A DNA stretch of 64,000 nucleotides from an uncultured Planctomycetota bacterium (GTDB lineage: Bacteria; Planctomycetota; Planctomycetia; Isosphaerales; Isosphaeraceae). Under the pieces are notes generated by a model. It was given only the letters and a program-made list of their open reading frames with translations. It ran no database searches and had not been told where the DNA came from. The DNA lies in assembly GCA_963823665.1 (NCBI GenBank), contig CAWGMQ010000004.1, forward strand, positions 416,001 through 480,000, in the 5' to 3' direction. Below, piece after piece: positions 1,083-12,196 of this stretch; position 1 is the stretch's first letter; every line of letters begins with the position of its first letter. The translations under genes were made by a program, and so were the position numbers.

Positions 1083-1109
1083 GCGCTCGTTTTTTGCTCG
1101 GCGCGCATC
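1083..1109 (+). promoter_or_regulatory. Bipartite motif copy P1 (putative ECF promoter, autoregulatory)
   Basis: GCGCTCG-TTTTTTGCTCGGC-GCGCATC. The motif starts 50 nt before the ECF ATG at 1133. Four more copies have the same 13-nt spacer. Confidence 0.65.
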
Positions 1110-1132
1110 TGTTATGGTGGCATCTGGCGAAG

Positions 1133-1690
1133 ATGCCGCGCCCACTGCGAGAGACCGGTGCCGTGGAAGAGTTTCGTCCGTATCTCAAGTTACTGGCCCG
1201 TCTGCACTTGGACCCGCGGGTGCGCGGACAGGTGGATCCCTCGGACATCGTTCAGCAAACGTTCCTGGCCGCCCACGCCAAGCAGGCGCAGTTCCGGGGA
1301 GCAACGGACGCGGAACGCGCCGCGTGGCTGCGGGCGATCCTGGCGAATCACCTCGCGCTGGCATTGCGGAAGTTCGGACCGAAGGGGGGCGGCCGGGTGC
1401 GTTCGTTCCAGGATGACCTGGACCGATCGTCGGCGCGATTGGAGGGGTTTCTGGCGGCCGATCATTCGAGCCCGAGCGAGCGGGTGATTCGGTCGGAGCA
1501 GTCTGTACGGCTGGCCGGTGCGCTTGCCAAGTTGCCCGAGGATCAGCGCACTGCCTTGGAGCTGCGACATCTGGAAGGCCTTCCTGTGCCGGAGGTGGCC
1601 CGGCGCATGGAGCGGACGGTTCCGGCCGTGGCGGGTCTGCTGCATCGGGGAACGAAGGCTTTGCGCGGGCTGATGCAGGAATCGGACTGA
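1133..1690 (+). CDS. ECF sigma-70 factor, planctomycete STK-associated type (TIGR02984-like)
   Basis: Region 2 reads YLKLLARLHLDPRVRGQVDPSDIVQQT...AWLRAILAN. Region 4 reads LPEDQRTALELRHLEGLPVPEVARRM...LLHRG. The ATG at 1133 is preferred over the TTG at 1094, which lies inside the promoter motif. Confidence 0.92.
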   Translation: MPRPLRETGAVEEFRPYLKLLARLHLDPRVRGQVDPSDIVQQTFLAAHAKQAQFRGATDAERAAWLRAILANHLALALRKFGPKGGGRVRSFQDDLDRSSARLEGFLAADHSSPSERVIRSEQSVRLAGALAKLPEDQRTALELRHLEGLPVPEVARRMERTVPAVAGLLHRGTKALRGLMQESD

Positions 1691-1939
1691 GTACGAGGGT
1701 CGAGAGCGATTTCGCGAGAACGGGCGGGTATGGAGCGGGAGAGTCGGGCTAAGCCGATGAAAGCGGGGTGCATATTTCAGTTTCTAGGTCTACGAGGAAG
1801 TGCTGAACCTGTTGCACGGTCGAGCCCGGTGGCTGCAAGGTCAATAATGAACCCAGGAAACCAGGAAGGGAATCAGTCGATCAAACACGTCCGTCGTTTC
1901 CGGCTCAGCCCCAGAGCGAGACAGGAGCATGGCGTTGAC

Positions 1940-2041
1940 GTAGGTCAGGCTTCAGCCTGACGGAGTGCGGAAGTCAGATTCTCAATCGGCAAATCTGCGA
2001 TGCGGATGAAGTCGAACTCGTTGGGCTAAGGCCCGACCTAC
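1940..2041. repeat. Inverted REP doublet (REPIN-like)
   Basis: GTAGGTCAGGCTTCAGCCTGACG at 1940-1962 and the inverted related copy CGTTGGGCTAAGGCCCGACCTAC at 2019-2041. Each has a 5' GTAG tetramer followed by a palindrome. Confidence 0.7.
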
Positions 2042-2059
2042 ATCGTGTGAGACTCTTCG

Positions 2060-8761: not shown

Positions 8762-11700
8762 ATGTTCACATTGAACGCGGCACTGTCAGAACGCGGGCGA
8801 AGATCGACTTCCGGACTGGCGGCAGGGCGGGAGGCCACAACCAGCGAAGCTGCGGTAGTATGCCGGCGGCCGAAGGCGAGGCGCAGGCGGCCGCTGGCGC
8901 CGGAGCTCCTGAGCTTGGAACACAGGTGGCTGCTTTCGACTTTCGACGTGACGAGCACCGCCGATGACGGGAGCACGGGCACGCTGCGGTGGGCTGTCGC
9001 GCAGGCCAATTCTGCAACGTCGCCCAGCACCATCGAGTTTCAACTCGCCAGCACACCCGCCACGATCACGTTATTGAACGGGCAACTGGAGCTGAGCAAC
9101 ACCGCCAACGCGACCACGATCGACGGTCCGGCGCGAGCCTGGTCTCCATCAGCGGCAATGGGGCTGGCCGCGTATTCGCGGTCGACAAAGGCGTGGCGGC
9201 TACGATTTCAGGCCTCACAATCACAGGGGGCTCGACGACGTATCTGGGCGGCGGACTCTACAATTACGGCTCAGTGACGCTCACGGGCTGTACGATCAGC
9301 GGCAACTCCGCGGGCAGCGCTAGCACCGTGGGCGTTGGCGGCGGCCTGGATAACCGTGGGACTGTGACGCTTGACCATTGCTCGGTCAGTGATAATTCCT
9401 CCGCTTCGTCCGGCCATGCCAAGCGCGGCGATGTCGCCGGCCTGGCCAATACTGGCACGGCCACGCTCACCGATTGCACCATCAGTGGCAACGTGGCCAC
9501 CGCCGGCGTCGGCGGTCTGTGGAGTGCCGGCACGGTCAACCTCACCGACTGTGTGATCAGCGGCAACTCATCCGGCCTGTCCAACGGCGGCATGGCCACT
9601 CTCACCGGTTGCACGATCAGCGACAACTCCGGCGCCGGGATCGCAAGCGGCAACGGGTATCAGATCGGCGGCCTCACGCTCACGGACTGCACCATCAGCG
9701 GCAACTCCGGCGGCGGGCTCGCCAACTTTGGAACTGCCACTGTCGCCGATTGCACGATTAACGGCAACTCCGCCCCATACCGCGGTGGCGGGGTGAACAA
9801 TTTTGGCACGGCGAGTCTCACCGCCTGTACGATCAGTGGCAACTCGGCACCTGCCGGCGGTGGCGTTTACAACTATCAAGGCGTTAATTCCTACAGTGGC
9901 CACGTTTACGCCGGCACGTTGACGCTCAACGACACGATTGTCGCAGGGAACAGCAACGGTCAAGCCACCGCCAGCGATATTGGCGGTAACGCGTCCAGTA
10001 TTCTCACCGGCATGTACAACCTGATCGGCACCGGCGGCACTGGTGGCCTCACGGATGGTAGCAACGGAAACATCGTGCTCACGAGCCTTGCCAATCTGAA
10101 CCTTGGCCCATTGGCGGATAACGGCGGCCCGACCCAGACCATGGCACTTCAGACCGGCAGCGCGGCCATCGGCGCGGGCACCACGGCCGACTACCCTGGT
10201 ACGAACACCCCGATCACCACCGATCAGCGCGGCGAACCGCTCGACTCACCCGCCGACATCGGAGCCTACCAGGTCCAGTCCCGCGCCGACGACACTCGCT
10301 GTGGCTTCCATTGGGCCGGTCACGCCCGATCCACGCAACTCACCGGTCGCATCCGTGAGCATCACGCTGAACGAGCCTGCACGCACGGGCGGCTTTGACA
10401 CCAGCGCGCTCTCTTTAACCGATAACGGGGGTCCGAACCTCATTACCAGCGCGGTTCTCGACCACCCTCGACTCTGGTTCGACGTATCTGATTAATGGTC
10501 TCGGCGGCCTGACGACTGCCGAGGGATCTTACGTTCTGAGCGTGAACGCCGCCGACATCCAGGACCTCTCCGGCAACCCCGGCGCCGGCTCCAATTCGAT
10601 CTCCTGGCTGATGGACACAACCCCGCCCGTCAGCACAGTCGACCCACTCTCGTCGCAAACGACATCGACCAGCTTTACAGTCTCCGTGACTGCGTCCGAT
10701 CCCTCGAGCGCAGGCGGTAGCAGCGCCTCCGGCGTCGCCTCGATCGCCATCTATGACTCAACCAACGGTGGCGCGTTCAAGCTGTTTACCACGGTCGCGG
10801 CTTCCCAACCGTCCGCAACCTTCTCGGGCGTCGCGGGCGACACATACAGCTTCTACAGCATCGCCACCGACAACGTGGGCAACGTCCAACCCACTCCCAC
10901 GTCTTCCCAGGCCACGACGCAAATAGTCGCGCCGGCAATTCTTCAGTTCGCCGCTTCTCAGTTCACCGCGAACGTCACCCAGGGCACCGCAAGCGTCGTT
11001 ATCAATATCAATCGCAGTGGTAATCTGAGCGCTACCTTCACCGTCGAGATCTCGACCTCGGGCGGCACGGACGTCGCCGAGTTCGCCAAGACGATTTCTT
11101 TTGCTTCAGACGTGACCAGCCAGTCTGTCACCATCCCGATCATCAACAACGGCCAAGCCGGCCAGGCCGACGAGCGCGTTGCGCTTGCGCTCTCCTCCCC
11201 CAGTAGCGGGGCCATGCTTGGTGCTACGGCGTCGACCACCCTTGTGATTCACGACAACAACCCGCCCCCGCCACCTCTTGTCAGCGTCGCATCCGCGACG
11301 ACCGAAATGATGAAAGTCGGCAAAGGCAAGAAAGCGATGAAGGAGTTGGTGCTTGTGCTTCAGTTCAGCGGCGTACTGAACCAAACCGCCGCTGGCGACG
11401 TGAACGCCTACGATCTCGCGCCGCTTATCACGCTCAAGGCCACGGGCAAGGGCAAGAACCGCAAACCTGCGACGACAAAACTGGGCTCCCCCGTCCCGGT
11501 GGCCTCTGCCGTCTACTCCTCCTCGAACAACGAGGTGACGCTTACACCAAGGACCGCGCTGAGTAAATCAAAGCCCGAGGAGCTGATCGTCAACGGTGCG
11601 CTCTTGACCGACACGCTCGGCCGCGACCTGGACGGCGCCGACAGCGGAACAGCCGGAAGCGACTACATCGCGACAATCAAATCCGACCGTCTCACGATCG

Positions 11701-11804
11701 GCGGAATTCCACTTGCGCGCACAGCGAACCCGAGCGCCGCTGCCGTCGATGTCTTGCTCGCTACCTACGCGCTCGCTGACATCAGGCGCCGCCGGGGTGG
11801 CTGA
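8762..11804 (+). CDS. Secreted parallel beta-helix (choice-of-anchor Q-like) / Calx-beta protein, ~1010 aa, 3 frameshifts (~9130, ~10280, ~10460)
   Basis: N-terminal RRRPLAPELLSLEHRWLLS. Repeated TLTDCTISGNSA..GGGL.N. Motif LGPLADNGGPTQTMAL...DQRG..DIGAYQ. Calx-beta-like ILQFAASQFTAN. Stitched from ORFs 8660, 8989, 10103 and 10542. Confidence 0.82.
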
Positions 11805-11924
11805 CCGCTCCGGCGTGGCCTTGAGACAACCTCGGCAAATTCGCATGAAGATCAAATGACATGCGTCGTGGTACCAACGACCGGTTTCGCAACTCCGTCC
11901 GAAACGTTGCGTTTCCAGGCCCCT

Positions 11925-12056
11925 CCGAGCCAACCCTGGCGAATGACCGCGAGCGCCAACACGCGTACAACGCCGCGTGCGCGGCTACAGTGGCGGTGCT
12001 TGTGGGACGACGTCCGGAGACTTCTTGATAAGGCAGCTCGCGGCGCACATTCGTGA
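11925..12056 (+). pseudogene. Internally deleted remnant of a paralogous STK-TPR 3' end
   Basis: EPTLANDRERQHAYNAACAA (cf. ~5094-5156) is fused to QWRCLWDDVRRLLDKAARGAHS* (cf. QWRHLWADVRKLLNRAASGA, ~5481-5540). Confidence 0.8.
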
Positions 12057-12169
12057 GTCGGTCGCACAATGCCTGGCGGCCCTGACGCGTTCGCGCTGGC
12101 GCGAGCGCAGGGGCCAAGGACGAAGCTCTCGACCGCGCGGGGTTCGCTCTTCCAATAACTCAGGAATGA

Positions 12170-12196
12170 GCGCTCGTTTTACGCGCGAAGAGCATC
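12170..12196 (+). promoter_or_regulatory. Bipartite motif copy P5
   Basis: GCGCTCG-TTTTACGCGCGAA-GAGCATC. The motif starts 104 nt before ATG 12274. Confidence 0.62.

Follow-up and report, generated by a model that had tools for sequence, protein, structure and literature searches.

Which protein reads five nearly identical two-box repeats that stand ahead of genes within 11 kb of a planctomycete genome? The repeats, named here P1 to P5, lie in a stretch of 64,000 nucleotides (nt) from an uncultured bacterium of the Isosphaeraceae (Planctomycetota; assembly GCA_963823665.1, contig CAWGMQ010000004.1, positions 416,001 to 480,000). This whole stretch is called the window, and all coordinates refer to it. 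The original prediction, made from the letters alone, had taken the repeats for the promoter of a sigma factor of the extracytoplasmic function (ECF) type encoded at 1133..1690, with downstream surface proteins as its regulon. This proposal was supported by four independent comparative tests: a variant of the motif is conserved upstream of homologous sigma genes, a sigma's own variant recurs downstream, sigma residues and motif letters covary and allowed a held-out prediction, and a start signal is found at +1. With a probability of roughly 0.86, the five repeats are the −35/−10 promoter of the sigma at 1133-1690, predicted to drive the operon of this sigma and its kinase as well as three genes for exported proteins nearby, the sigma likely being switched on by the adjacent membrane kinase.

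Five copies of a two-box motif

The pattern GCGCTCG-N13-GMGCATY had five exact matches in the window, all on the forward strand and at the predicted positions 1083, 5613, 8479, 8689 and 12170. A T-rich tract opened the 13-nt spacer in each of them, again as predicted. In 100 dinucleotide shuffles the mean count was 0.02 and the maximum 1, a comparison that overstates significance, as the pattern was derived from the same five copies. The distances from motif start to start codon confirmed the claimed range of 50-104 nt: 50 nt (start codon at 1133), 73 nt (5686), 86 nt (8565), 73 nt (8762) and 104 nt (12274). For P2, an alternative ATG at 5671 lies 58 nt from the motif start.

1083..1109, forward strand: P1, likely autoregulatory promoter, with GCGCTCG at 1083-1089, a T-tract and GCATC at 1105-1109; predicted +1 at 1119
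5613..5639, forward strand: P2, likely promoter, 22 nt past the kinase stop codon; predicted +1 at 5649
8479..8505, forward strand: P3, with flanks in common with P5; predicted +1 at 8514
8689..8715, forward strand: P4, with a 5′ leader in common with P2; predicted +1 at 8725
12170..12196, forward strand: P5, likely promoter; predicted +1 at 12205

The five copies differed at just one of the 12 box positions, while the flanks of unlike pairs were at chance level. Identity between the flanks of P1 and those of the other copies was 0.05-0.40 in register, that is, they were unrelated, as had been claimed. P2 and P4 have common flanks (79% over 103 nt), and so do P3 and P5 (81% over 152 nt); the five copies therefore go back to about three lineages rather than five. 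Around P3 (8474-8673) and P4 (8558-8760), the assembly was letter-for-letter identical to short-read contigs from soil runs, which rules out an assembly artefact for these two.

Directly after P1, and after no other copy, stands TGTTATGGT (1110-1118), which resembles the extended −10 element of a housekeeping sigma and could supply basal expression. No sigma-70 consensus promoter was found by a consensus scan of window positions 1-15500.

Within the 16.46 Mb genome, the strict pattern was matched 12 times (control 4); of these 12, the five in the window were the only ones with the T-tract. A T-tract version of the motif had 6 exact genome matches, 5 of them in the window, and 7 with one mismatch; the bare 12-letter core had 48 copies versus ~30 expected. 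By these counts the signal is local and almost confined to 11 kb. A genome-wide regulon was rejected: the 27 examined of the 43 core copies outside the window lay inside long open frames and mostly had no T-tract, although this open-frame test is weak, with spurious frames covering the window's own copies too.

Conservation and recurrence at homologous loci

From the own and related genomes, 140 stretches were fetched, giving 153 sigma records, 140 of which had a kinase gene just downstream. Six of the 153 were excluded as short or duplicate, and L276 was excluded by hand for a doubtful site; L326, a duplicate of L325, was left out of the residue-76 tree and the start-signal counts. In genome G106, from another genus, the closest orthologue (69% identity) is preceded by GCGCTCG-15-GCATC at a distance of 70 nt. 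The gene order there is sigma, then a kinase-TPR gene, then a PKD protein that bears a leader and is itself preceded by a degenerate site, GCGGAAG-15-GCATC. In a 51-member clade (FastTree support 0.78), GCGnnnn-15(14)-(G/C)C(G/A)T(C/T) was present upstream in 34 members, and in 2 further sigmas outside the clade. The variants tracked the tree: GCGCTGA/CCGTC, GCGCTCA/CCGTT, GCGCGCG/GCGTC, GCGTGAG/GCGTC, GCGTGAG/GCATT and GCGCT(C/A)G/GCATC. The expectation that homologous ECF sigma genes carry the motif upstream thus held for variants at the same place, but not for the exact motif: among 120 family genomes, 13 had matches, 15 in all and scattered (control 6), none of them ahead of a sigma gene. 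A family-wide exact motif was rejected; only the closest orthologue keeps the exact form.

Across homologues the conserved second box has 5 nt, (G/C)C(A/G)T(C/T), 15 nt from the 7-mer. The motif is best read as GCGCTCG (−36 to −30), 15 nt with the T-tract, and GCATY (−14 to −10). The GM first included in the second box belongs to the spacer. The pattern is that of an ECF-type promoter, with two boxes a fixed distance apart that lie upstream of the sigma gene and are conserved in homologues, and a T-tract beside the −35 box is a described feature of such promoters (PMC5758882). The canonical boxes are AAC (−35) and CGT (−10) (PMC8103513); the window has GCGCTCG and CAT instead, with CGT found in the homologues that have Asp76.

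The own variant recurred exactly downstream, on the same strand, at 10 of 34 loci (window excluded), versus 1 of 34 on the opposite strand and 14 of 988 pairs of unlike variants; none of 10,000 permutations reached 10 recurrences. One of the ten copies precedes the kinase gene instead of following it. Mid-spacer identity between recurring copies was only 0.40, so the recurring sites are not fresh copies. When up to one mismatch was allowed, there were 17 downstream sites, 11 of them ahead of a leader-motif or PEP-CTERM gene, compared with 254 of 4260 random places. Recurrence and placement ahead of exported-protein genes together indicate that the architecture promoter, sigma, kinase, promoter, exported protein is itself recurrent. 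The window is an amplified case of this architecture, with four output copies.

An unbiased private-promoter test on other paralogues of the own genome gave self scores of at least 13 in 8 of 50 cases versus 25 of 300 cross scores, with a coding mask that hid the window's sites too. Three of these paralogues, L214 (+5834), L224 (+5159) and L241 (+5272), seem to repeat their upstream two-box motif after the kinase, a set that is not significant. A sister subclade of 193-aa (amino acid) sigmas (L264, L270, L283-L287, L295, L298, L304) has another upstream motif, roughly ATCTATCGC(G)...GCCGTACC(C/T)TG. The motif-less clade members L218, L258, L265, L269 and L275 often have TATAAT-like hexamers upstream, as if a housekeeping promoter had replaced autoregulation.

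Covariation of sigma residues and motif letters

The columns that best tracked the motif letters were in region 2.4 (residues 72 and 76) and region 4.2 (163, 164, 167 and 171). Asp at residue 76 went with G at −12 in 24 of 24 cases, and any other residue with A in 12 of 12. Three residue-to-base predictions were recorded beforehand and tested on new loci from metagenomes and other families. Of 84 such loci, 3 had too little upstream DNA and were dropped; a site above threshold was present in 36 of the remaining 81 (background 7.8% of 243 coding stretches). In 34 of these 36, the −12 base was the one expected from residue 76, and the rule that Val164 goes with T held in 4 of 4, with two more T found without Val. 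In a tree calculated without the recognition helices, residue 76 changed 9 times and the base 11 times. A single clade of non-Asp sigmas was rejected (p-AU 1.2e-5).

By alignment, residue 76 occupies the position of the DxxR Asp and of RpoE Asn84. According to mutagenesis, this position reads −12, Asp giving −13C −12G (PMC3397946; bioRxiv 10.1101/2020.06.23.168245). Residue 167 is the equivalent of RpoE Arg171 and covaries with the −31 base, the base read by the Arg171 position (Todor et al., bioRxiv 10.1101/2020.06.23.168245).

From the residues of the window sigma, the letters expected at the six variable positions are C, T, C, G, A and C, and all six match the observed letters. Support for these letters, calculated without the window and its two nearest relatives, was 15/15, 12/12, 26/29, 9/12, 23/24 and 25/29, respectively. 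Of the 53 own-genome paralogues examined, all but the window sigma have at most 3 of these 5 key residues.

Start signal

A pyrimidine-purine step was present 10 bases past the second box at 50 of 88 non-window sites, with 29 at the next best offset. At downstream sites, which lie far from start codons, the step stood at the expected +1 in 12 of 18. The window copies have it at offset 10 (three copies) or offset 9 (two). A search for RNA runs that contain window positions 1000-9000 found none.

The sigma factor and its kinase

1133..1690, forward strand: ECF sigma, 185 aa, TIGR02984-like, with DPSD for DAED (Ser37), Leu76 for the DxxR Asp and recognition helix RTVPAVAGLLHR
2060..5591, forward strand: Ser/Thr kinase with TPR repeats, one predicted membrane segment (residues 381-400) and one frameshift near 3650-3660
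2072..2239, forward strand: conserved, helical-looking N-terminal domain of the kinase, ~55 aa, with no family match

The sigma scored 54.9 bits with TIGR02937, above the cut-off of 42.9. Pfam r4_2 was matched and Pfam r2 was not among the matches; the sigma profile aligned with solved SigH across both domains (E 3e-16). On these profile comparisons, the product is an ECF (group 4) sigma factor with sigma2 and sigma4 only. TIGR02984 (Sig-70_plancto1) was the best family by far (176.1 bits, E 5.5e-52), with a score below the curated cut-off of 183.75. By its score the sigma is a close TIGR02984 relative that formally, and narrowly, misses the cut-off. The own genome has ~58 strong TIGR02984-like paralogues. 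DPSD aligns to DAED of SigH, and a serine occupies the third place in 65 of the 71 homologues listed.

The N-terminal domain of the kinase was found at 47 of 52 other loci tried, with the consensus L..VL.AY...G..PDR...L..HPDLA.EL..F...QDRL..L..PLR and no conserved Cys/His zinc pattern. No convincing match was found among Pfam families or solved PDB chains. Among Atlas clusters, only unnamed planctomycete ones resemble the domain; they are of stand-alone size, with 60-96 members. The domain could possibly dock the sigma or be anti-sigma-like. The gap between the sigma and kinase genes is unusually long (370 nt) and contains a short palindromic element, GTCAGGCTTCAGCCTGAC, at 1938-1962, which we take to be a repetitive extragenic palindrome (REP)-like element.

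In the mechanism that we propose, residues 163-171 of the sigma4 helix would read GCGCTCG (−36 to −30), and residue 76 in sigma2.4 would select the −12 base, Leu giving CAT instead of CGT. Transcription would start 10 nt past the second box. P1 would provide positive feedback on sigma and kinase, and P2-P5 would provide the output, exported proteins. The activating steps are modelled on known systems only: the TPR domain, lying outside the membrane, would sense a signal and turn the kinase active; phosphorylation of Ser37 in DPSD by the kinase would then enable binding of the sigma to core polymerase. By this analogy, we consider phospho-activation of the sigma reasonably probable.

Alternative explanations

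The repeats could be an ECF promoter read by another sigma, either a paralogue or the TIGR02999-type sigma at 22505-23068, or the site of a regulator that is not a sigma. The ~58 strong paralogues and a second sigma-kinase pair 10 kb away provide candidates, and the residue check was confined to 53 of these TIGR02984-like paralogues. Across loci, however, the motif letters track the residues of the adjacent TIGR02984-like sigma, and of the 53 sigmas examined only this one has the matching residue set. The motif is also not palindromic, and it has −35/−10 spacing and a start signal at +1. Another reader is thus quite improbable. We regard it as highly improbable that local duplication of gene starts left the copies behind as neutral relics, with P1 alone or no copy at work. 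The region is a mosaic of duplicated pieces with kinase-tail and DinB remnants, P3 precedes a decayed remnant, and the spacers are alike; but near-identity of the boxes beside chance-level flanks of unlike pairs, and recurrence of the boxes in other genomes with diverged spacers and flanks, speak against it. For P3 alone the relic explanation is likely true; this copy is likely either a relic or a second, upstream promoter of the 8762 gene. An RNA hairpin or intrinsic terminator of the upstream gene would agree with the weak stem and T-run that a consensus scan found at 1076-1091, 5602-5618 and 8471-8485, and with P1 and P2 lying just past stop codons. Terminator-like elements, however, numbered 16 versus 11.8 ± 3.7 in shuffles, which is not above them, and folding z-scores of −1.4 to +0.6 revealed no common structure. 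A terminator would also leave the fixed second box and the covariation with sigma residues unexplained, and is extremely improbable.

Several results weigh against a promoter of the 1133-1690 sigma, or against parts of that explanation. A clear site was lacking in 17 of the 51 clade members and 45 of the 81 new loci, and 24 of 34 loci had no exact downstream copy. The recorded rule that Thr167 goes with A held in only 4 of 8 new loci, residue 76 provided only 3 independent contrasts on well-supported branches (sign test p 0.25), and the key-residue check covered 53 of the ~58 strong paralogues. The five window spacers are 0.62-0.85 alike, more than at other loci; given these alike spacers, even P1 may share its origin with P2-P5. 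In the assembly, frameshifts disrupt both the kinase gene and the 8762 gene, and other reads contradict just one of the four breaks. Finally, DPSD retains two acidic residues, and according to a review, groups that retain acidic residues may work unlike EcfP (PMC8999054).

Downstream genes and the duplicated mosaic

5686..8013, forward strand: 775-aa protein, Arg-rich leader ending LExRxLL, delta-60/DUF5122 propeller repeats; likely exported
8565..8672, forward strand: 35-aa mini-ORF (open reading frame), with the ribosome site and first codons of the P5 gene, and Arg-rich text in another frame
8762..11804, forward strand: likely exported protein with leader, repeat region, choice-of-anchor Q and Calx-beta; broken near 9130, 10281 and 10465
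12274..13830, forward strand: 518-aa protein, Arg-rich leader ending LEGRSLL, delta-60/DUF5122 repeats; likely exported

The products downstream of P2, P4 and P5 are likely exported, as read from their leaders, in agreement with the three secreted-protein genes of the original prediction. What that prediction called an orphan mini-ORF is probably all that is left of a decayed leader. The LExRxLL leader of the targets presumably resembles that of Planc_extracel; the Pfam family (PF07595) had no match on the target leaders, and its single match in the genome lies elsewhere. A short-read contig disagrees with the assembly at the 10281 break of the 8762 gene, and the breaks of this gene may be long-read errors.

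Duplicated pieces in the window pair 5602-5704 with 8678-8780 and 8385-8533 with 12074-12224. There are also a DinB-gene remnant at 8202-8375 (79% to 14211-14384), a kinase-tail remnant at 11935-11989 (91% to 5102-5156) and an 84-nt near-tandem repeat (8068-8151 and 8157-8239). The fragment mosaic at 7997-8533, 11935-12224 and 14126-14384 suggests repeated local duplication of modules. Further along, a tandem pair of DinB-like paralogues lies on the reverse strand (14280-14777 and 14832-15353; DNA 78% alike). A second cassette, at 19017-23068 on the reverse strand, has a TIGR02999-type ECF sigma (183.5 bits), a kinase and a WD40 part. Divergent from it is a 1771-aa leader-bearing repeat protein at 23404-28719 on the forward strand.

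Comparison with known systems

According to Casas-Pastor et al. 2021 (PMC7826278), the kinase of the planctomycete ECF59s2 is encoded at +1 and contains TPRs and a single membrane helix. The window kinase is also at +1 and has one membrane helix and TPRs, so by analogy the system fits this description. The predicted ECF59 promoter has "a conserved TC in -35" (PMC7826278); TC is present in the GCGCTCG of all five window copies, whereas many homologues have none. The ECF59 description, on which the comparison was based, gives no full −35/−10 motif, targets or residue code. A review names a serine for ECF59 at the place of the phosphorylated residue (PMC8103513). ECF217 and ECF62 also have a kinase at +1, and their promoter motifs were reported as not conserved (PMC7826278). 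ECF217s1 has neighbours with a planctomycete extracellular-protein domain (Planc_extracel) and with TPRs; ECF217 was described from Rhodopirellula and Pirellula. The kinases of ECF62 carry WD40 or an N-terminal zinc finger, neither of which was seen in the TPR-bearing window kinase.

In ECF43, EcfP/PknT of Vibrio parahaemolyticus and EcfK/PknS of Xanthomonas citri likewise have a Hanks-type membrane kinase adjoining the sigma and no anti-sigma gene (PMC8103513, PMC8999054, PMC13147305). In this type an uncharged motif with a Ser or Thr at its third place replaces DAED, and Ser37 of the window sigma corresponds to the phosphorylated Thr of EcfP. The N-terminus of PknS, too, is helical and unexplained. 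In contrast to STTA in EcfP, DPSD retains two acids, and promoter and output differ. The "local" ECFs of Todor et al. (bioRxiv 10.1101/2020.06.23.168245) resemble the system proposed for the window in autoregulation, few linked promoters and the pairing of the Asn84 position with −12 and the Arg171 position with −31. Differences are that the word "Planctomycetes" is absent from the main text of that study, that the window −35 box is without AAC, and that the residues employed by the recognition helix are small or hydrophobic (V, P, A, G, H). By this comparison, the window system works like a local, autoregulated ECF regulon, whose principle and residue-to-base code are already known; the surprise is therefore moderate.

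In the classification text (PMC7826278), no promoter is given for ECF61, ECF62 and ECF217, and only two letters for ECF59. A literature search found no experimental or full promoter, or targets, for these ECF groups; figures and supplements of planctomycete papers may hold predictions.

Implications

Planctomycetes have dozens of kinase-linked ECF sigmas per genome. For these, the defined promoter, the predicted starts and a one-residue switch (76) make kinase activation and sigma targets testable. As a tentative extension, which we rate somewhat below even odds, the kinase-linked ECFs of this lineage may have radiated as insulated cassettes. In each of them, 5-6 sigma residues would spell a private promoter, interchangeable exported cargo would be gained by local promoter duplication, and the N-terminal domain of the kinase would dock the cognate sigma, keeping dozens of paralogous pathways apart. 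If true, one could read from such a code how hundreds of as yet unstudied sigma-kinase pairs are wired, and would have a set of orthogonal switches ready to use.

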